From the UHGV virus genome UHGV-0111856: a stretch of DNA of 47,833 nucleotides; one strand, written 5' to 3'. The translations under genes and the position numbers were made by a program. A model generated the notes under the pieces. That model was not told the DNA's origin. It made no database searches and was given only the letters and a program-made list of their open reading frames with translations. This stretch comes from a virus. Of this stretch, positions 3,609 to 44,474 are shown one piece after another (the first letter of the stretch is position 1; every line of letters begins with the position of its first letter).

Positions 3609-5006
3609 ATGCCGAAGAAGATGACGATTGATGAACTCAAAGAAAAGCTGCGTAGCGTTCATGGCGAGACGTATGAGTATGATTTTTATACCTTCCATGG
3701 CTGCCACTCACCAATGAAAATAGTATGCAAAAAGCATGGGGAATTCTGGCAAAAGCCATCCAAACACCTTCATGGTCAGGGGTGTGCAAAGTGCCAAAAG
3801 GGCGTCATTTCTGTCGATGATTTTAAATCAATGGCTTCCGCTGTTCACAGAGGAAAATATGACTATAGCAAGGTTTTTTTTGAAACGTTTTCTCGGGAAA
3901 AGGTAACAATCGGATGCCCGATCCATGGGTGGTTTGAGCAAGGAGCCTACATTCACCTGAAACGTGGTAATGGATGCCCAAGGTGCGGGGATGAGAGTTC
4001 GAGGAAAGCAAAGATCAAAATGTTCGGTGATTTTGTTGATGATGCGAAATGCATCCATGGAGATAAATATGAGTATTCACCGAATGGGTTTACTGGTTCC
4101 CGAGGCAAGATTAATATCTTATGCCCTGTGCATGGGGAGTTTACTCAGGGTGCAGCAAATCATCTTGCTGGGAATGGGTGCCCATCGTGCGCTGGAGTAA
4201 TGTCAAACGCAGAAGCCGATATCCTTGCATTTGTTAAGTCACTAGACCCATATGCAATCAGTAGGGATAGAGCGACGATAGCGCCATATGAACTTGATAT
4301 AGTCTCAAAATCCAAATCATTAGCCATAGAGGTAAACGGCGTGTACTGGCACTCGGAGAAGGTCGGGAAAGATAGGCTTTATCACAGAATGAAGAGGGAG
4401 AGGGTTGAAGCGTCTGGAATGAGATTAATAAGCATAAGAAGCGATATCTGGAGAGATAAAGAAGATTTGGTCAAATTAATAATAATGAATGCCATGGGCT
4501 GTAGGCCTAATGAAAACATAAACGCAAGAGAATGCGTCGTTAAAGAAGTATCAAGTCGTGATTCTAGGGATTTTCTTGATGCACATCACGTGATGGGTGG
4601 AAAGAACGCCAGCAGGCATTTCGGGCTGTTCAATGGTGATGATTTAGTTTCAGTTATGACTTTCACGATAAAATCAGGCGCAACAGAGCTTGTGAGGTTT
4701 GCGTCGAAGTGCAACGTTAGAGGCGGGCTTACCAAGATGCTAAAAAACTGCTCTTCAATCATCGGGTTTGACAGGTGCTTTAGTTATGTTGATCTTGATT
4801 TGTTTACTGGCAAGTCATACATAGCGGCAGGATTTAAACCAGTTAGCATAAAGCCAGGATTTGGCATAGTTAATGGCAGTAATGTAGAGTCAAGACAGAA
4901 ATGGAACAAGGCGCCGAAAGGTATGACCCAAACAGAATGGTACGAATCTGAGGGTGTTAGCAGGATATGGGACAGCGGACAGATGAGAATAGAGTGGAGT
5001 AGATAA
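3609..5006 (+). CDS. homing-endonuclease-like protein: 3 tandem zinc-ribbon repeats + PD-(D/E)xK (Vsr/DUF559-like) nuclease domain
   Basis: three repeats of pattern HG-x-Y-x-Y...CP-x-HG-x-F-x-Q...H-L-x-G-x-GC-x-x-C; then ELDIVSK...EVNGVYWHS...R motif block; opposite strand to flanking late genes; own terminator. The ORF track starts at GTG 3597; I moved the start to ATG 3609. Confidence 0.55.
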   Translation: MPKKMTIDELKEKLRSVHGETYEYDFYTFHGCHSPMKIVCKKHGEFWQKPSKHLHGQGCAKCQKGVISVDDFKSMASAVHRGKYDYSKVFFETFSREKVTIGCPIHGWFEQGAYIHLKRGNGCPRCGDESSRKAKIKMFGDFVDDAKCIHGDKYEYSPNGFTGSRGKINILCPVHGEFTQGAANHLAGNGCPSCAGVMSNAEADILAFVKSLDPYAISRDRATIAPYELDIVSKSKSLAIEVNGVYWHSEKVGKDRLYHRMKRERVEASGMRLISIRSDIWRDKEDLVKLIIMNAMGCRPNENINARECVVKEVSSRDSRDFLDAHHVMGGKNASRHFGLFNGDDLVSVMTFTIKSGATELVRFASKCNVRGGLTKMLKNCSSIIGFDRCFSYVDLDLFTGKSYIAAGFKPVSIKPGFGIVNGSNVESRQKWNKAPKGMTQTEWYESEGVSRIWDSGQMRIEWSR

Positions 5007-5013
5007 ACAAATA

Positions 5014-5045
5014 AAAGGCGTCATGTGGCGCCTTTTTTATATCTA
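5014..5045 (+). terminator. rho-independent terminator
   Basis: AAGGCG-8nt loop-CGCCTT followed by TTTTTTAT. Confidence 0.6.
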
Positions 5046-5187
5046 GCAGCAATAAAGCACCACGAAACGGACGCAAGAAGGTAAAGCGGAGATGCGGTAA
5101 AAGCGAAAAGAGTAGCAAAGAATGATATCAGTATGATTGGCATGGCTGCTACCTCCTGAATGCAAGGTAGCAGCCAATGATGAAGAT

Positions 5188-5532
5188 TTATTGAGGACTA
5201 TTCTTATTTAGCATTCCGCAGTTAATTTTTGCGCGGTTTACTGCATCCATGAATTTCCCGATGGGCATAGTTTTGCGGATTTCAGCCAGAATGGCGCCAT
5301 GCAACATTCTTTCTTCGCCGTAGTAGAGCTTATCAAGGCGAGTGCGAACCAGCGCGCGGGTGCGTTTCATATGGTCTCGCGCTTTCATTGCCTTCTCTTT
5401 CCATACCTTACCTGCATCATGATTCCCGGCAAGCTGGCGCTCGACCGCTTCAATCTCGAATGCAAGCATCATATCCCATGAGTCAAGCTCGCTGACTGTC
5501 GCTTCCATGATTTCGTTAAGTTGTAGTTTCAT
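5188..5532 (-). CDS. hypothetical protein (114 aa)
   Basis: GGAG RBS; TAAATG junction with upstream gene. Confidence 0.5.
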   Translation of the reverse strand: MKLQLNEIMEATVSELDSWDMMLAFEIEAVERQLAGNHDAGKVWKEKAMKARDHMKRTRALVRTRLDKLYYGEERMLHGAILAEIRKTMPIGKFMDAVNRAKINCGMLNKNSPQ

Positions 5533-11896: not shown

Positions 11897-12841
11897 TCAG
11901 GTGGCTTTCTTGTGTGTGTCCTGCCATGCTTCACGCTGCTTATCGAGTCTTTCCTGCGTTTTTTCAAGTATCACAGGCTTGCCATCCATCACCAGTGCTG
12001 GGGTTTGCGCACAGTGGCAGTTACGGCGGTTTGCGCCTTCGCTGTAGAACTCATCAATCTCTTCAGGGGTGTAATACTTCCCATGACGAGCGGCATGAGT
12101 GACGCGGGTGGTTTTCATTAGCGCCGACTGCCAGAGCATGATGGTGTCCATACCCAGCGTGACTTGCGCCTCTTTCACTTCGCGCCTGTTAGCCTCGCGC
12201 AGGGTGTTGGTGATTTCAGTCTGAGCAATGGAGCGCGCATAGCTCCTTGATACATCCATGCGGTTAACGATGTTTTGTTCAACCACTCCAGGAGCGTCGC
12301 CATTTGCAATGCCAGCAGTGATGACTTCCGCCACCTGTTGCCGCGTGTAATCTGAAAGGCCACCCCAATCGTTATACGTGCGCGTATACGCAAGTTGAAG
12401 CCTGTCGAGATAAGGCTGAGAGTACAGGATTTCAGCAAGCGGCCTGGTGTCTTTGTATGCCGACGACAGGTCGCCAAGGTCTGAGTTGGCCTTCTGCGTA
12501 CCGGCATACATGGCGTCGCTGACGTAGGATGATGCCCACATCCGTCCATGCGTGAAATCATCGCCTTCCAGCAACTGATTATCAAGAATGCGCTGAAGCT
12601 CATCAAAGAATGTCGATGCGCGGTAGGCAGAGAAATCATAATAATAATTTCCAGCCTCAGCATTACCGGTTGCCACAGGAATAGTGCGGAACAACCCGGC
12701 AACCTGCGATTTTAGCGTCACATATCTGGCGTCAACATCACGCACCATCTTATTGACGCGACCCACTGCGCCGAGCGGGTCTGTCAGGCTCATGCTTAAT
12801 TTTGGCTGCGGAAGCCGGGCATTAATTTTGAGGAGGCGCAT
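11897..12841 (-). CDS. minor head / head morphogenesis protein, SPP1 gp7 / Mu F family
   Basis: C-terminal block [14 protein letters not shown]...HGKYYTPEE...RRNCHC typical of the Phage_Mu_F domain; immediately downstream of portal with 20-nt overlap. ORF track starts at 12940 but that start lies inside the portal gene. Confidence 0.75.
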
Positions 12842-14252
12842 CGGTCTGGCCCTGCTGTTGGTCTTGCTGCTGACCTTCCTGTAATCCGTCAGGAAGCTGC
12901 TCTTCCAGAGGCTCCATACCAACAATTCCGCGCATCTCATCTGCGGTCATCAGGGCCATCTGGCCCGCATCGAATACGGATTTGTTTGCAGCGGCAAGTT
13001 TGACCAGCAGGTCGGCCTTGTTCAGTTCGGAAGGTGCAAGCAGGTCATCCCATTTGCAGTAATAACCGCTCTCTGGCGCTTTATCCAGAATGCCAAAGGA
13101 AATCATCCGGTCAATGAACACCGAAATGATGTAATCCAGCCAGTCTTCGCGGCGCTGCTTGGCGCTCATGGCGTCGTCGGTTTTATCCTCATCGGATGCA
13201 AGGCGGCCAGTTTGCTGACCAAACAGGATGGTGAATGGCTTCTTGATGGATGCCGCAAACTGGTTGGCTGCAATAGTCCACGTCGGGCTCGGGTCTGCTG
13301 GTGTCACTGAGAGTACTTTGACATCAGCGCCCATCGTGAACATCGCCGCGTCAATCGCCTCATTCAGGCGCGCCACATCCTCATTGAGCACATCTGCCAG
13401 CTCTTCCAGTGGCACATCCATTTGCTGCGCCAGAGACCGAGCGGAAACTGACTCTTTGTTGTAGTTAACATTTAGCTGTCGGCTTGCATTCTTCAGGAAG
13501 CCCTCGGCGCTTGAGCCGGTTACTTTCGCCATGTCGATGAGATGGTTATACCCGGCACGCAGAAGCGGAACGCCAGAGTAAATCGAGCCATCCATCGCAC
13601 CCTCGGCAAATACGATAATGCGATCGGGATGAATGCTCAGGGAACGTGTTGGTTTGCCGTCGCTGTTGCGGGCGCCGACTACCGACTCCTGATATTCGTA
13701 CATCTTCGGTTGACCATAGTCCTCGCTGGATTCGTCATTTTCCCATTCACTTACGCGGAGCTGCTCTTCCCATGCCGGAATGTAGCGGACAATGGCAGCA
13801 TCCTTGATGCGTTTTGTTTTCGTGATGTCTACCGGCTCATTCCACTGCTTTCCGTCACGGATTTGTAGTATGAGGCCGGAGTAGCGATTGATGAGGTTGC
13901 GGCGGTCTGCATCCTTGATAAATGGCGCAGCGCGCTTAAACAGCTTATTGGCAGCTTTCTCCCACGGAGTGCTTGCTTTATCATCGGCACCTTCCTGAAG
14001 GATTTGCGGCGGAGTCTGCCAGCACTTATCGAGTACGCGGTTAACGCCAGCTGTTGCCGGTGCATAGCGCTCATAGGCATAGCGGAACATCTCGGCGGTG
14101 ATTTCTTCAGGGTAGCCGCATTCGACCCACAGCCTGTCGTGTTTGTGGTCGATGTTCTTCCCACCAAACTCCCGACGCTGCCGCTCGATGAGCCTGTTAT
14201 TGTTCGCCACTCGCTGCTGAATATAGGCGTTTACCGCCTCTAACTTTGACAT
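12822..14252 (-). CDS. portal protein
   Basis: 476 aa, acidic/Gln-rich C-terminus; lies between terminase and the Mu-F-like gene. Confidence 0.65.
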
Positions 14253-14261
14253 TTCGTCACC

Positions 14262-14292
14262 ATAAAAAATCCCATCGCATGGATGGGATTAT
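14262..14292 (-). terminator. rho-independent terminator (minus strand) upstream of portal
   Basis: AATCCCAT-7nt-ATGGGATT; T-run on the minus-strand reading. Confidence 0.55.
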
Positions 14293-14299
14293 AGCATGG

Positions 14300-14812
14300 T
14301 CAAGGGTTGTTTTTTCTTACCATTTCAGCGACCCGCTCCCTTGCTGAGATGGAAGCCATTTCTGCCTCCTCTACTGTTTTATAGTACCCAAGAGATTCCT
14401 GCTTCCCATTGATGTATATTGTTGCCAGATACCTTCCTGATGGTTTATGCAATGTCACTCCGAGAATTCCAAGCGAGTTACTCTTTGGTAACTTGTAAAA
14501 ATTCCTCTTTGCTATTTCATTATTCCCAATATTTCTGCAACCTGATGGAGATATCGAAAGGTCATCCCACCTTGAGCTGAATGGGTTCTGAGATATTGAG
14601 TACACATTTTGATCTGCAGGAGGAAAATCACCGGTCATATATAACCATGCCAGGCGCCTTGCTGTATAGGCTTTTCCAAGCACTATTATGTGGCATCCAT
14701 GACTCGATCTTGTGCCTGCAACCTTTCCCTTCCTTTTGCCTTTAATCCATACAAATCTACCTGATTCAGGATGATATGATAGCCATTCTTTTAATTCGCT
14801 CTGAGTTATCAT
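14300..14812 (-). CDS. degenerate HNH-AP2 homolog (catalytic motif lost, AP2 DNA-binding domain retained)
   Basis: aligns with the HNH-AP2 paralogs (RLAWLYMTGDF) but DH-N...N motif replaced by VYSISQNPFSSRWDDLSISPSGCRN; AP2-like LGILGVTLHKPSGRYLATIYINGK present. Confidence 0.6.
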   Translation of the reverse strand: MITQSELKEWLSYHPESGRFVWIKGKRKGKVAGTRSSHGCHIIVLGKAYTARRLAWLYMTGDFPPADQNVYSISQNPFSSRWDDLSISPSGCRNIGNNEIAKRNFYKLPKSNSLGILGVTLHKPSGRYLATIYINGKQESLGYYKTVEEAEMASISARERVAEMVRKNNP

Positions 14813-14821
14813 TATCCCACC

Positions 14822-15025
14822 TCAATCAACTCTACTAAGAAACAGCGCGCCAACCATAGACGCAACCAGCAGAAATACAGTAATGCGCAGCACGCCGATA
14901 TTCATGATATCACTCAGCATCGGTTGCTCCCATTTAATAAACCATGCAACCGGAAAGGCTAGTGCAAGGCATGCCATATATACCGCAAAGAGATATACCC
15001 ATGCCAAGAGAAATCGCTTCATCAT
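14822..15025 (-). CDS. small membrane protein (2 TMD)
   Basis: ATGA overlap with upstream gene. Confidence 0.45.
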   Translation of the reverse strand: MMKRFLLAWVYLFAVYMACLALAFPVAWFIKWEQPMLSDIMNIGVLRITVFLLVASMVGALFLSRVD

Positions 15026-15222
15026 TCCACCTTTTCGAATTTATCAAAAATAACAGAATATCCGCTTCCTCCTTTTGAGTTAATGTATTGAACTTGCTTG
15101 TCGTAAGCAGCATCAAAGCCTTTTACGGCATCTGATGCCGTTACAGTCCCGCAGAAGTTGCCAACATTGCGCCCGGATGCTGGTTCCTCAATGTGACCGC
15201 GATAAAAGTAAATACTCATCAC
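15022..15222 (-). CDS. hypothetical protein (66 aa)
   Basis: coupled operon member. Confidence 0.4.
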   Translation of the reverse strand: MMSIYFYRGHIEEPASGRNVGNFCGTVTASDAVKGFDAAYDKQVQYINSKGGSGYSVIFDKFEKVE

Positions 15223-15386
15223 TCAATCTCCTCGCCATCAACCCAGCGTTGCAGGACTTCGATAAGCTGCGCGGCCTGGTGTTTGTCGATGATAATAGCG
15301 TCACACCCCTGAGTAATCACCAATTCAGGACCAAACTTAATAGCTATTGCGCACATTGACGTTTTGGTTTCATCTTCAATAATCAT
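15220..15386 (-). CDS. hypothetical small protein (55 aa), not in ORF track
   Basis: ATGA overlap with the HslV-like gene stop; ends at the start of the next gene. Confidence 0.35.
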
Positions 15387-15871
15387 TTCATCCCCTCGCC
15401 ATGCTTGAATTGATAAGTTTTAACATTCGAGTCAGTGAAGGCATCCAGAACTGACGCAGTAATTACCGCCTGTTCAGCGGTCTGCCCCAAGTACATTGCG
15501 GTCATGGCAAAGTCGCGCCCACAGCCAGCGGCAAGCGGTGGAATGACTGCGTAAACCGCTGGATATTTATTGTCAGGAATCTTCTGGATGGCGAAGCAAT
15601 TCCCTTTGTCTGTGAACACCCACTGAGTAAAGTCCAGCTCTTCCGGCATCTCCATAATGTCATCAACAGCCCGCCGCATGAACTGCCTCGCGTATCTCTC
15701 ATCACCGGCAGCGCCGCTACCAACAATCAACACAGCCAGCTCACCGCAAATAAAAAACTTATCATTGGCATCAAGTACAAAAGACTTCTGCTGGTTAGCC
15801 ATAATCAGGCTTCCGGCAGTAGCCTGACTATCGTGCGCAATCGTAATCCCATCCCATGCAATTGTTGTCAT
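15383..15871 (-). CDS. HslV / proteasome-beta-like Ntn-hydrolase peptidase
   Basis: N-terminus M-TTIAWDG-TIAHDSQATAGS...M...K parallels HslV TTIVSV...IAGDGQATLGNTVMKGN.KK with Thr directly after the initiator Met; later G-x-AG and AAGCG (compare HslV AIGSGG) blocks; AGGT RBS. Confidence 0.55.
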   Translation of the reverse strand: MTTIAWDGITIAHDSQATAGSLIMANQQKSFVLDANDKFFICGELAVLIVGSGAAGDERYARQFMRRAVDDIMEMPEELDFTQWVFTDKGNCFAIQKIPDNKYPAVYAVIPPLAAGCGRDFAMTAMYLGQTAEQAVITASVLDAFTDSNVKTYQFKHGEGMK

Positions 15872-15883
15872 TTCATTACCTCA

Positions 15884-16033
15884 ATCATCAATCTTTACAG
15901 ATGAAGTCACAAGCACCGCAACAAAAAGAAACCATCCCCAGCCTTCTTTATTGTTGTATGCCAGCCACGCAGCCGCACAAATGGCAAATATTGTTGGCAA
16001 CTTCACCATAATCATAAACACTACATCCCTCAT
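15884..16033 (-). CDS. small membrane peptide (50 aa), not in ORF track
   Basis: ATGA overlap with upstream gene; two hydrophobic segments. Confidence 0.35.
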
Positions 16034-16269
16034 AAATCACCACCCTCATCGTTATTTAACTCAACATTCCGAAAGAAATCATTAATCGTCTTCAGCCCAC
16101 TGTATCCCCGGCGTCGCTGTAACTCACACAGCACCTCATCATACATGCGCAGCAGAATGGCCTCATCCACATCGTACCTTTTGCACAGCACCTCATCAGA
16201 CACACCAGCCCTTGCGAGTGAGTATATTTTTTCCTTCTGCTCCCAAGAAAAAGATGAATATGCCTTCAT
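16030..16269 (-). CDS. HTH-domain protein (putative transcriptional regulator), first gene of minus operon leading to portal
   Basis: SWEQKEKIYSLARAGVSDEVLCKRYDV helix-turn-helix-like segment. Confidence 0.45.
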   Translation of the reverse strand: MKAYSSFSWEQKEKIYSLARAGVSDEVLCKRYDVDEAILLRMYDEVLCELQRRRGYSGLKTINDFFRNVELNNDEGGDL

Positions 16270-16302
16270 GATGCCCCGGTGATGTAGTTATGTCAATGCG
16301 CC

Positions 16303-16331
16303 TTGACGTAGATTCTAGCATGGCGTAGATT
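16303..16331 (+). promoter_or_regulatory. promoter TTGACG-N17-TAGATT
   Basis: -35 at 16303-16308, 17-nt spacer, TAGATT at 16326-16331; start codon 16358 follows at about 27 nt. Confidence 0.55.
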
Positions 16332-16357: not shown

Positions 16358-16648
16358 ATGAAATGTGTCATTTTCGAGCTTGATGGCGTGCTGCGTGATG
16401 TCGATGGTAATGCTATCACTGGCAACGTTGCGCTGGCTAAGTCGCTCTACTCTGCCGGGCATGATGTGCTTATCATGAGGGCAAAGCATGCTTATGAATG
16501 GCTGCATGCTAACGATATTTTCTATGATGACATCATGGCTTCTCACCAGCAGATTGACGCTGACAGAGTGGCAATGGCGGTCGTGTCTGATGATGTGATT
16601 TATGCCGCCATGCGCAACGCTGGGATTCATTGCTGGCTTTATAAATAA
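16358..16648 (+). CDS. small protein with HAD-like ELDGVL N-terminal motif (96 aa)
   Basis: GGAG RBS; FELDGVLRD resembles HAD motif I but the protein is too short for a full HAD fold. Confidence 0.4.
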   Translation: MKCVIFELDGVLRDVDGNAITGNVALAKSLYSAGHDVLIMRAKHAYEWLHANDIFYDDIMASHQQIDADRVAMAVVSDDVIYAAMRNAGIHCWLYK

Positions 16649-16661
16649 TTTATTGTAAACG

Positions 16662-16690
16662 TTGACGTGGATTCGTGGTTGATGTAGATT
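16662..16690 (+). promoter_or_regulatory. promoter TTGACG-N17-TAGATT
   Basis: -35 at 16662-16667, TAGATT at 16685-16690; gene start 16726 with AAGGGTGG RBS. Confidence 0.55.
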
Positions 16691-16725
16691 TATCAAAATA
16701 TAGTGATTTGGTTAAGGGTGGTAAG

Positions 16726-17275
16726 ATGCAGATTCCAAAAACAAGAAAAGATGCTATATGCCTTGGCGTTAAATTCTACAACACTGGCAGGACATGCAAG
16801 AACGGGCATCAATGTGATAGACACGTTGGTTATGGGTGTGTGGATTGCTTGAGGTTAATTCAGCAGGATTACAGAAAAAGAAACCAAGATAAAATACAAA
16901 AAAAGAACTCCAACTATAAGAAAAATAATGCAACAAAGATTGCAGAGCTAAACAAAAGCTATAGAGAAAAAAAACAGAAGTAAAAGGAAATGCCAAAATA
17001 AGAAATACAAAACACAGTCTAGACAGGCATCTCAAATATCATTAACAGAATGGGACGAATTTGTTATTTCTGAGGCGTACCTTTTATCTCAAGCGAGGAC
17101 AAAAGAGACAGGTTTCGATTGGCATGTTGACCACATGATTCCATTAAGAGCAAAATATGCAAGCGGTTTGCATTGCGCCAATAATATACAGGTTATTCCT
17201 GCTGTTATGAATCTTAGCAAAAGAAACAAAATGATTCTTACAGAGCCAGTGGAATGGATAAAAACAGCCCTCTAG
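16726..17275 (+). pseudogene. zinc-loop HNH endonuclease gene interrupted by a frameshift at an A8 homopolymer (16965-16972)
   Basis: frame 1 encodes the Cys/His zinc region (CKNGHQCDRHVGYGCVDC) and stops at 16981-16983; the next frame continues from 16952 with no start codon and encodes WHVDHMIPL...GLHCANNIQVIPAVMNLSKRN HNH motif up to TAG 17273-17275; removing one A restores a single ORF. Confidence 0.6.
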
Positions 17276-17290
17276 CGAGGGCTTTTTCTT
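17262..17290. terminator. bidirectional terminator between HNH gene and terminase gene ends
   Basis: GCCCTC-tagc-GAGGGC with T-runs on both strands. Confidence 0.6.
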
Positions 17291-18713
17291 ATCTCCTGCT
17301 TCTCCTAATCCATCCAGAGCCACGCTGCACAATGTGGTCTCCAAGGCCATAGCGCAAACTATCTGTGGCGTGGTTGTGCTTGTCGATGATATCAGGAAGT
17401 ATATTTCCCGTGAGCTTGTCCACTTTGTAGCTGTAAAGAGTAAACTCCTCAATGACAGTCTTACATCTTTCGTGAACAAAAATCCTGTCACAACCCCTGA
17501 GCCATGTGATTCCGTCCTCAATGCTGCCCGGCCACTTTGCGCACGGATGGATATCAAATCCTGAGCGCTTTATATGGCTTATTGTTTCTGGCCTTGCGCA
17601 GTCACCATACCATCTGTATTTTTCTGAACCCGGGAATGCCAGTCGCATAGCTTCTGGCGTATCAGTTATCTCAAGACCAACCTTTGCAAAGTCGCGGTAG
17701 ATATACAGGTTTCTTCTTCCGCCGCCCAAATCCTCGACATAAGATTCAGTTGCTGCCGTAGCATCCTGCGAGAAACCAAAGTCAATGCCATAGTAAGGCC
17801 CTCCCCAATCTGGCGATGGCTCAAAATCAAGAGTCTGCCATTTACCCCCAAGCACGGCCTCATCTGAGCGCCGGTTAAACAGTCCCTCATAAACCCACAG
17901 ATAGCGGTCATAATCTACCGCCTTCATTTGGTTCATGTGCTGTTTAAGTTCCTCAGTAAACCACGGGTTATGGATGTAGTTGACATTTACAACGACAATA
18001 TCATCATCCTGATATATCCCGTCTACCATCTTATCAACATATGGCTCAACAAAGTTTGTCCACGTGGGGTCAGTTTCGCGGTTGGGGTTAAAAACAATAA
18101 TAATTTCAGAACCTGACGCGCGAACCGTTGGGATGAGCGTGTCCCATGACACCTGGCTTATATTCTCGGACTCTTCGCAGAACACGTCAGTAAGCCCCGC
18201 CATCCCTTTAATGGCCGTGATATTGCGCCACATGCCCCTGAACACGAACTTTGACCGTGTGCCATAGTGCGTTATCTCGCCATCAACGCAGCGATATTCT
18301 TGCGCGTGGCCCTTCCTGTTGATTTCATCAACAAGCTCTGTGTAGCTTGATTGCTTGATTGAGTTCTGAATTTCCCGGAAGCAGCCAACCCTGCAATTTC
18401 TGAACCTTGCCTTTTCGATAAGATAGGAAACGACGTTAGCCGTTTTGCCGCTGCCCCTTCCGCCATAGAAGACCTTAAACCGGCGCGGATAAAGCAAAAG
18501 CTCCATGCGTTCAGGGATTAGTATTGTTGGCTCTTCAGTTGTCTCTGATACGCCATCCTGAGTCATTTTAAGTCGCTTGATAACATTTGGCGTGCCATCT
18601 TCAAGCAGCTTATCGACAATGCCGAAAACAGCAGAGTCAGGCTTCTCTATGGAGTTACCAACCGCTTCTTCCAGCTTTTCGATTGCCAGTGCAGAGAGGC
18701 GCTTACGAGCCAT
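17289..18713 (-). CDS. terminase large subunit
   Basis: Walker A YGGRGSGKT, C-terminal nuclease-like region; ATG at 18713 chosen (ORF-track start 18731 is TTG). Confidence 0.85.
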   Translation of the reverse strand: MARKRLSALAIEKLEEAVGNSIEKPDSAVFGIVDKLLEDGTPNVIKRLKMTQDGVSETTEEPTILIPERMELLLYPRRFKVFYGGRGSGKTANVVSYLIEKARFRNCRVGCFREIQNSIKQSSYTELVDEINRKGHAQEYRCVDGEITHYGTRSKFVFRGMWRNITAIKGMAGLTDVFCEESENISQVSWDTLIPTVRASGSEIIIVFNPNRETDPTWTNFVEPYVDKMVDGIYQDDDIVVVNVNYIHNPWFTEELKQHMNQMKAVDYDRYLWVYEGLFNRRSDEAVLGGKWQTLDFEPSPDWGGPYYGIDFGFSQDATAATESYVEDLGGGRRNLYIYRDFAKVGLEITDTPEAMRLAFPGSEKYRWYGDCARPETISHIKRSGFDIHPCAKWPGSIEDGITWLRGCDRIFVHERCKTVIEEFTLYSYKVDKLTGNILPDIIDKHNHATDSLRYGLGDHIVQRGSGWIRRSRR

Positions 18714-18858
18714 GGCGGGATGTTCCCACAATAGTAATTATTGTTGCTGACATCATGAACATGATGCCCCATATCGCAGATGCAATATCGTTTGACTTAT
18801 CACCCATAGCAAACATGAGCATGGCACAGACCATTAGTGACATTGATAGTTTAAACAT
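18703..18858 (-). CDS. possible 51-aa membrane peptide between small and large terminase genes
   Basis: start embedded in TerS stop (AATGTTTAA), stop overlaps TerL start; Met-rich and hydrophobic; could be spurious. Confidence 0.3.
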   Translation of the reverse strand: MFKLSMSLMVCAMLMFAMGDKSNDIASAIWGIMFMMSATIITIVGTSRHGS

Positions 18859-44316: not shown

Positions 44317-44394
44317 GCACCATTAGCTCAGCAGGATAGCAGCAACGGCCTTCTAAGCCGTGGGTCACTGGTTCGAATCCAGTATGGTGCACCA
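44317..44394 (+). tRNA. tRNA-Arg (anticodon UCU)
   Basis: clean cloverleaf: acceptor GCACCAT/ATGGTGC, anticodon stem ACGGC/GCCGT with loop CUUCUAA, T-arm CTGGTTCGAATCCAG, encoded CCA. Confidence 0.85.
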
Positions 44395-44397
44395 AAT

Positions 44398-44474
44398 TCC
44401 CGTTTAGCTTAACTGGTTAAAGCACCCGACTCATAATCGGATGATTACAGGTTCGAATCCTGTCGCGGTAACCA
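44398..44474 (+). tRNA. tRNA-Met-like (anticodon CAU), acceptor stem with two mismatches
   Basis: D-arm TAGCTTAACTGGTTAAAGC, anticodon loop CUCAUAA, T-arm ACAGGTTCGAATCCTGT, 3' CGCGGTA-A-CCA; 5' strand TCCCGTT pairs only 5/7, so possibly a pseudo-tRNA or non-canonical. Confidence 0.5.

Follow-up and report, generated by a model that had tools for sequence, protein, structure and literature searches.

What is a lone gene for a proteasome-like peptidase doing between the packaging and head genes of a tailed phage? The question is raised by the virus genome UHGV-0111856, a stretch of 47,833 nucleotides with the backbone of a Klebsiella siphovirus; this whole stretch is referred to below as the window. 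An initial annotation, made without database searches, had taken the 162-aa product of one of its open reading frames (ORFs) for a peptidase resembling HslV and the proteasome, with threonine right after the initiator methionine. We can state with high confidence that this protein is a lone phage-encoded peptidase of the HslV/proteasome type, that is, an N-terminal nucleophile (Ntn) enzyme. The gene, which we assign to the published PPH family, and the two groups of codons on which the argument turns are:

15383..15871, minus strand: PPH-family proteasome/HslV-like N-terminal-threonine peptidase, 162 aa (MTTIAWDGITIAHDSQATAGS...), identified by phrog_1040, hhalign, AlphaFold2, Foldseek and the ratio of nonsynonymous to synonymous substitution rates (dN/dS)
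15866..15868, minus strand: Thr2 codon (ACA), directly after ATG; predicted nucleophile, Thr1 once Met is removed
15518..15526, minus strand: Gly116-Cys117-Gly118 codons, equivalent to proteasome Gly128-Ser129-Gly130 and aligning to IGSGG of HslV

Homology, fold and catalytic residues

The ORF opens with ATG ACA ACA and its product begins MTTIAWDG. Taken pairwise, the likeness to known proteins is weak. E. coli HslV finds the window at E=0.19, and a single-sequence search of PDB sequences gave no match. A single-query profile search returned weak matches only (E~0.06), to the N-terminus of proteasome beta5; this alignment, weak but consistent, pairs T2, D14 and K29 with T1, D17 and K33, and D143 and T146 with D166 and S169.

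At the level of families, the PHROG profile phrog_1040 ('peptidase HslV family') matches the 162-aa protein at E=5e-27. At E<=1e-3 an exhaustive hidden Markov model (HMM) search yielded 4249 cluster representatives, 469 of which also pass E<=1e-10; almost all are 135-175 aa long and match from residue 1. When a profile of 147 family sequences was aligned by hhalign with E. coli HslV (sequence taken from MG1655), a probability of 97.4% and E=1.2e-11 were obtained over residues 1-148, with a gap of ~25 residues left opposite HslV helix H2. In the profile alignment the Gly-rich blocks GSGAAGD and AAGCG face GFAGGTAD and IGSGG of HslV, just where the initial annotation had placed them, in the Gly-rich loops of that enzyme.

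Structure prediction with AlphaFold2 on an alignment of 115 sequences yielded a model with a predicted local distance difference test score (pLDDT) of 93.8 and a predicted template modelling score (pTM) of 0.89. It contains three helices only (57-67, 119-127 and 132-142), H2 being absent, and ends after the last core strand (151-156), with neither the C-terminal S12/H5 elements nor any extra domain. All of the top 50 Foldseek matches in the PDB are proteasome beta subunits, HslV or BPH (probability 1.00, TM scores 0.53-0.68), so that the Ntn-hydrolase fold, proposed from the outset as the decisive check, is borne out by the model. Against HslV of E. coli, S. aureus and T. maritima the TM scores are 0.60-0.67, with 17-21% identity in structure-based alignments, and 40 viral structures in BFVD match the model as well. 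By profile and fold evidence, the resemblance to HslV is far beyond chance. An earlier model, computed from an 11-sequence alignment, was dropped (pLDDT 74.7, the other four models below 58, Foldseek TM ~0.3).

Profile alignments assign an equivalent to each residue of the proteasome active site: T2, D14, K29 and G53 correspond to Thr1, Asp17, Lys33 and Gly47, while G116-C117-G118, D143 and T146 correspond to Gly128-Ser129-Gly130, Asp166 and Ser169. Throughout the family these positions hardly vary (D14 100%, K29 99-100%, G53 99%, G116 and G118 100%, S117 86-91%, D143 93-97%, S/T146 97-98%). The 100% conservation of T2 in the 147-sequence alignment is partly due to selection, because only proteins starting with MT or VT were taken in; in the unselected count, 152 of 163 retrieved family proteins start with MT, mostly as MTTIAWDG, and their median length is 153 aa. 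The equivalent of Ser129 is Cys117 (codon 15521-15523) only in the clade of Klebsiella phages, accounting for 6/147 and 6/115 aligned members, and the change could represent a shift of specificity or regulation. When the gene was compared with 13 members of its clade, dN/dS was 0.03-0.08 at synonymous distances (dS) of 0.35-1.3. Evidently, the protein is under strong constraint within this clade.

Relation to PPH and other proteasome-like families

A matching family was published in 2021 under the name PPH (PMC8665760). Its members, of ~140 aa, occur in Caudovirales and prophages, fall into group I near HslV and BPH, and have neither a propeptide nor S12/H5; helix H2 is missing uniquely from PPH and RPC. 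The window protein displays every PPH feature compared, namely a compact single-domain fold with the Ntn beta-sandwich core, Thr straight after Met, the Thr1/Asp17/Lys33/Gly47 constellation, and the absence of propeptide, H2 and C-terminal S12/H5. It shares with PPH the association with tailed phages and prophages too: besides the Klebsiella siphovirus backbone of the window, relatives are found in phage records, in a Providencia prophage copy and in 174 IMG/VR stretches. The differences are the cysteine at the Ser129-equivalent position in the window clade and a length slightly above the quoted ~140 aa, explained by a hairpin inserted near residues 33-43 and a loop that is longer near 98-104.

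The gene is thus not new, since its family has been described and near-identical phages already have it annotated. Close relatives carry the labels 'peptidase HslV family' or 'HslV family protease ... -like', among them VLCpiS13a (96% identity), KpV2811 (94%), VLCpiS13d and KlebP_265. By tblastn, homologues were detected in 345 phage records, of which 268 are Salmonella phages, largely Jerseyvirus among the matches listed; further carriers are SPN3US-like and Erwinia jumbo phages, Xanthomonas phages and Microbacterium phages (5 records). Lone HslV genes without HslU had been remarked upon in a paper on jumbo phages (PMC7823757). The view that a lone proteasome-type protease in such a neighbourhood is no standard module can therefore not be upheld, given a published family with its own PHROG, existing annotations in phages 94-96% identical, and hundreds of records.

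Compared with HslV (ClpQ, the peptidase of HslVU, MEROPS T1B), the window protein has the same beta-sandwich fold, catalytic residues and Gly-rich loop positions, and an N-terminal Thr nucleophile exposed by Met removal. It nevertheless falls outside HslV proper: curated HslV and Proteasome models do not accept it, H2 is missing and there is no hslU partner gene. It is moreover a phage-borne accessory gene, whereas HslV sits in a heat-shock operon. Recent capture of a host hslV was considered and rejected on the strength of the 17-21% structure-based identity and the missing H2. In terms of ancestry, the protein would be a stripped-down relative of HslV and of the proteasome beta subunit, having neither H2 nor a propeptide.

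The remaining relatives differ in more specific ways. BPH of Thiobacillus denitrificans (5OVS, 5OVT), matched at probability 1.00, is likewise a group I homologue without a known partner ATPase, but it keeps four helices, and its subunits, which have a long acidic pore loop, assemble into heptameric double rings (PMC5777263, PMC8665760). RPC lacks H2 as the window protein does, but has an additional domain at its C-terminus. AAH is found in phage genomes too, but is not described as devoid of H2.

Two contigs of jumbo phages contain tandem pairs of PPH-like genes (L068:3264-3998 with 4001-4537, and L025:4001-4543 with 4559-5209). Each pair includes a longer copy, of 244 or 216 aa, and the second copy of L025 starts with MSVAAFDG, which suggests, judging from this sequence, a serine as nucleophile. 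Such tandem genes could form hetero-oligomeric rings, or one of them could be an RPC-like paralogue.

The gene cluster between terminase and portal

Seven tightly packed ORFs, all on the minus strand, occupy 16269-14300, with the large terminase gene on one side and the portal gene on the other; the initial annotation had described a tightly coupled seven-gene operon ahead of the portal gene. Besides the peptidase gene, the region comprises:

17289-18731: large terminase (TerL), flanking the cluster; Terminase_3, E=5e-36
16268..16296, minus strand: sigma-70-like promoter match in the divergent intergenic region, TTGACA-17-CATCAT, 10/12
16030..16269, minus strand: g79, 79-aa soluble protein, first gene of the cluster; phrog_13301, E=9e-41, function unknown according to PHROG
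15881..16033, minus strand: g50, 50-aa peptide with two hydrophobic segments; Kyte-Doolittle 17-residue windows up to 2.31
15219..15386, minus strand: g55, 55-aa soluble protein, its start overlapping the peptidase stop by 4 nt; phrog_13627, E=5e-20, function unknown
15022..15222, minus strand: g66, 66-aa soluble protein with GTG start; phrog_26739, E=3e-17, function unknown
14822..15025, minus strand: g67, 67-aa peptide with two hydrophobic segments; Kyte-Doolittle windows up to 2.39
14300..14812, minus strand: degenerate HNH-AP2 homing-endonuclease-like gene, 170 aa; phrog_99, E=4e-31; AP2 27.7 bits, under the cut-off
14268..14290, minus strand: hairpin resembling an intrinsic terminator and closing the cluster directly after the HNH gene; 9-bp stem, 5-nt loop, T-run
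12822-14252: portal gene, flanking the cluster; phrog_146, E=4.5e-96

Four of the six junctions (g79/g50, PPH/g55, g55/g66 and g66/g67) are 4-nt start/stop overlaps. The other two (g50/PPH and g67/HNH) are 9-nt gaps, each carrying a TGATTGAGGT ribosome-binding junction. Strongly hydrophobic segments, two in each case, are confined to g50 and g67 and do not occur in g79, g55 and g66, in agreement with the two tiny membrane peptides and two small soluble proteins (g55 and g66) predicted earlier.

Tight packing does not, however, make the cluster a functional unit. We surveyed 86 loci with a PPH gene, belonging to 31 clades at 60% identity. Within the close clade, the window itself excluded, g79, upstream of the peptidase gene, was found in 17 or 18 loci, g55 in 11, g67 in 7, g66 in 6 and g50 in 1; only g79 goes with PPH throughout this clade, and BLAST against the 86 loci detected no small gene of the cluster outside it. 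Across the 31 clades no conserved partner gene was found, either by BLAST of the six neighbours against the 86 loci or by clustering of 878 neighbouring ORFs. Conversely, the siblings VLCpiS13e and KP591P1, which share portal and head-morphogenesis genes with PPH carriers, keep the arrangement of TerL, kinase, island and portal and are devoid of PPH; in VLCpiS13e a DNA methyltransferase occupies the portal end of the island. The seven-gene 'operon' is a mosaic accessory island and not a conserved module, so the idea of an operon tied as a unit to the peptidase has to be given up.

Other phages place the gene elsewhere. PPH lies directly upstream of small and large terminase genes (TerS-TerL) in at least six independent clades (survey loci L029:4001-4983, L046:4001-4967, L057:4001-5101, L035:3196-4277, L043:4001-4948 and L077:738-1522), the TerS proteins belonging to three PHROG families (606, 1482 and 51). 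In one of these loci, L035, it also directly follows genes for Rz spanin and endolysin. The TerS neighbourhood in at least six clades, together with this last case, makes the lysis-packaging junction the commonest home of PPH. In Jerseyvirus the gene is directly upstream of holin/holin/endolysin, in a Jedunavirus it belongs to a three-gene divergent island within the tail module, and in Providencia prophages it stands between tail tube and tail chaperone. It adjoins a methyltransferase in L080 and follows a primase in L071.

One close relative, 93% identical (L023:4001-4494), carries a frameshifted copy, the PPH frame being split into pieces of 74, 49 and 40 aa. This copy is either a pseudogene or an assembly error; a real pseudogene would fit with PPH being dispensable.

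Several features of the island deserve separate mention. The motif TGATTGAGGT...ATGA on the coding strand is common to 14805-14828 (g67/HNH) and 15864-15887 (g50/PPH), and could be either a ribosome-binding junction used in both places or a seam left by recombination in the mosaic island. A scan of the island for repeats returned short junction similarities and nothing else. Within g79, a 19-nt direct repeat (16127-16145 and 16184-16202, 95% identical) encodes a duplicated DEVLC motif. The -10 hexamer of the best sigma-70-like match overlaps the ATG of g79, which casts doubt on one or the other, the promoter or the g79 start; in VLCpiS13a the annotated frame of the g79 homologue is shorter (174 bp). 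The proposal that g79 is a helix-turn-helix protein gained nothing from Pfam or PDB sequences, neither of which gave a match, and only some depositors' annotations use this name.

The HNH gene at the end of the cluster is degenerate, as had been surmised, and is followed by the terminator-like hairpin. Alignment with intact homologues shows an insertion of 11 residues and substitutions at the conserved His and at all of the DHIN/DNR/NLR residues. The protein retains its AP2-like DNA-binding part, while every conserved HNH catalytic residue is gone. Since a 76%-identical copy in L011 shows the same losses, the inactive form is maintained.

Upstream of the cluster, a second terminator-like hairpin follows TerL at 17283-17266. 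Two small plus-strand genes interrupt the minus-strand region between TerL and portal, at 16358-16648 (polynucleotide-kinase/phosphatase-like in relatives) and at 16675-16983. Each is preceded by one copy of a promoter-like TTGACG-17-TAGATT on the plus strand (16303-16331 and 16662-16690). Far from the island, two adjacent tRNA genes at 44317-44474 encode tRNA-Arg(TCT) and tRNA-Met(CAT), while VLCpiS13a has tRNA-Met and tRNA-Gly instead.

Possible function of the peptidase

We consider it likely that the gene encodes an accessory N-terminal-threonine peptidase of the PPH family, probably homo-oligomeric and cytoplasmic, with restricted targets and no dedicated ATPase; our confidence in the functional details is low. 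Threonine following Met lets methionine aminopeptidase remove the Met, as happens in HslV. The host enzyme would strip Met1 in the same way and expose Thr as N-terminal nucleophile. Asp14 and Lys29 would then complete the catalytic triad, Gly53 would provide the oxyanion hole, and Cys117, Asp143 and Thr146 would position Thr1. Met removal and these residues together would give an active N-terminal-threonine hydrolase, most probably a peptidase, present as a homo-oligomer in the cytoplasm of the infected cell. Most likely it would need no dedicated ATPase and would act on a limited range of proteins or peptides, either of the host or of the phage. The absence of an HslU-like ATPase from the neighbourhood, stated in the initial annotation, was confirmed: tblastn with E. 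coli HslU found no such gene in the window (E>5), and there is no AAA+ unfoldase among the annotations of one complete relative genome. PPH is an accessory gene, located in a variable island made up of small genes, and would stand outside head assembly.

Several points weigh against this reading. The Pfam Proteasome model matches the window protein below significance (E=0.12, 12.4 bits vs a cut-off of 22.4). NCBIfam gave no match for the window protein, and other family members stay at or below 23 bits, where the cut-offs are 137-158. Assignment to PPH follows the published description; the reference WP_042125023.1 is not among the accessions listed for ten NCBI-derived family clusters. The cysteine at the Ser129 position may affect activity. 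Isolated HslV is only weakly active without HslU, and independence of an activator is for this reason not guaranteed. Finally, literature searches found no experimental or biochemical study of any PPH member, so that catalysis, oligomeric state and substrate are things we infer. The literature lead JSS1_004 mentions host hslV and nothing else relevant, and the paper on essential genes of SPN3US does not mention the PPH gene.

A more specific role for such a peptidase would be counter-defence or host takeover, by destruction of a particular immunity or stress-response protein of the host. This is a sub-case of the accessory peptidase favoured above and does not contradict it; we regard it as possible but unlikely. 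The argument is one of location: the gene sits in a variable island of accessory genes which in a sibling without PPH harbours a DNA methyltransferase, a typical anti-restriction gene, its presence among close relatives is patchy, and a methyltransferase adjoins it in L080 as well. On the other hand, PADLOC gave zero matches for any gene of the cluster, the peptidase included, and no published anti-defence phenotype was found. In many other phages, moreover, the gene belongs to late, lysis or packaging regions and not to early anti-defence regions.

Alternatively, PPH might dock on host HslU (ClpY), either forming a hybrid ATP-dependent protease or displacing HslV, with the result that proteolysis in the host is redirected or blocked. 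Full activity of HslV depends on HslU, and a homologue of HslV encoded by a phage with no ATPase of its own would find the partner in enterobacterial hosts, which carry hslVU (as seen for E. coli). Yet the column aligned with HslV Lys28, which we take to be the pocket residue binding the HslU C-terminus, is variable in the family, with an alignment gap nearby. H2, one of the apical helices on the face by which HslV meets HslU, is absent according to the alignment, the model and the published description (PMC8665760). PPH also occurs in Actinobacteria, for which no HslV is listed (PMC8665760, Table 1), as well as in the five records of Microbacterium phages. Missing H2, the variable Lys28 column and the actinobacterial occurrence all weaken docking on HslU, which we hold to be quite unlikely.

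The recurrent position next to holin and endolysin, to TerS-TerL or to Rz and endolysin, and between TerL and portal in the window, invites the thought that the peptidase has a late role in lysis timing or DNA packaging, e.g. if it degraded a protein that regulates lysis or processed one involved in packaging. The lysis-terminase junction is, however, a general insertion hot-spot for cargo genes, and because of this the adjacency may be positional and not functional. The neighbouring TerS proteins come from different families, other clades have PPH in tail modules or after primase, and siblings without PPH possess the same packaging and lysis genes. A late role is thus very unlikely in our opinion.

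It is highly improbable that the protein has no catalytic activity and serves as a scaffold or decoy, or that it hydrolyses or ligates substrates other than proteins. The proteasome-like family does include a ligase, connectase, members such as BPH are not known to have a physiological substrate, and Ser129 is replaced in the window protein. Near-total conservation of the catalytic constellation over about 150 diverse members nevertheless argues for catalysis, and all characterised members of the proteasome-like family act on polypeptides (PMC8665760).

Last, a prohead (capsid maturation) protease, suggested by the location among head genes and by the fact that none is annotated in VLCpiS13a, is extremely improbable and was rejected because PPH is missing from close relatives whose portal, head-morphogenesis and capsid genes are the same; the position of the gene also varies widely across phages, and known prohead proteases belong to other folds.

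With the accessory PPH-family peptidase as the preferred reading, our observations add modestly to what is known of the family: no conserved partner gene, recurrence at the lysis-terminase junction and dispensability in siblings, none of which changes the expectations of specialists. The interest lies in the biochemical question of what PPH cuts rather than in the finding itself, and the window clade offers a tractable system for it, a small cultivable Klebsiella siphovirus with natural siblings lacking the gene. There is some chance, if not a large one, that PPH is a self-sufficient viral threonine protease which destroys an immunity or stress-response protein of the host, or that it plugs into host HslU and retargets it. 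If true in either form, a virus-encoded proteasome-type enzyme would for the first time have a demonstrated function.

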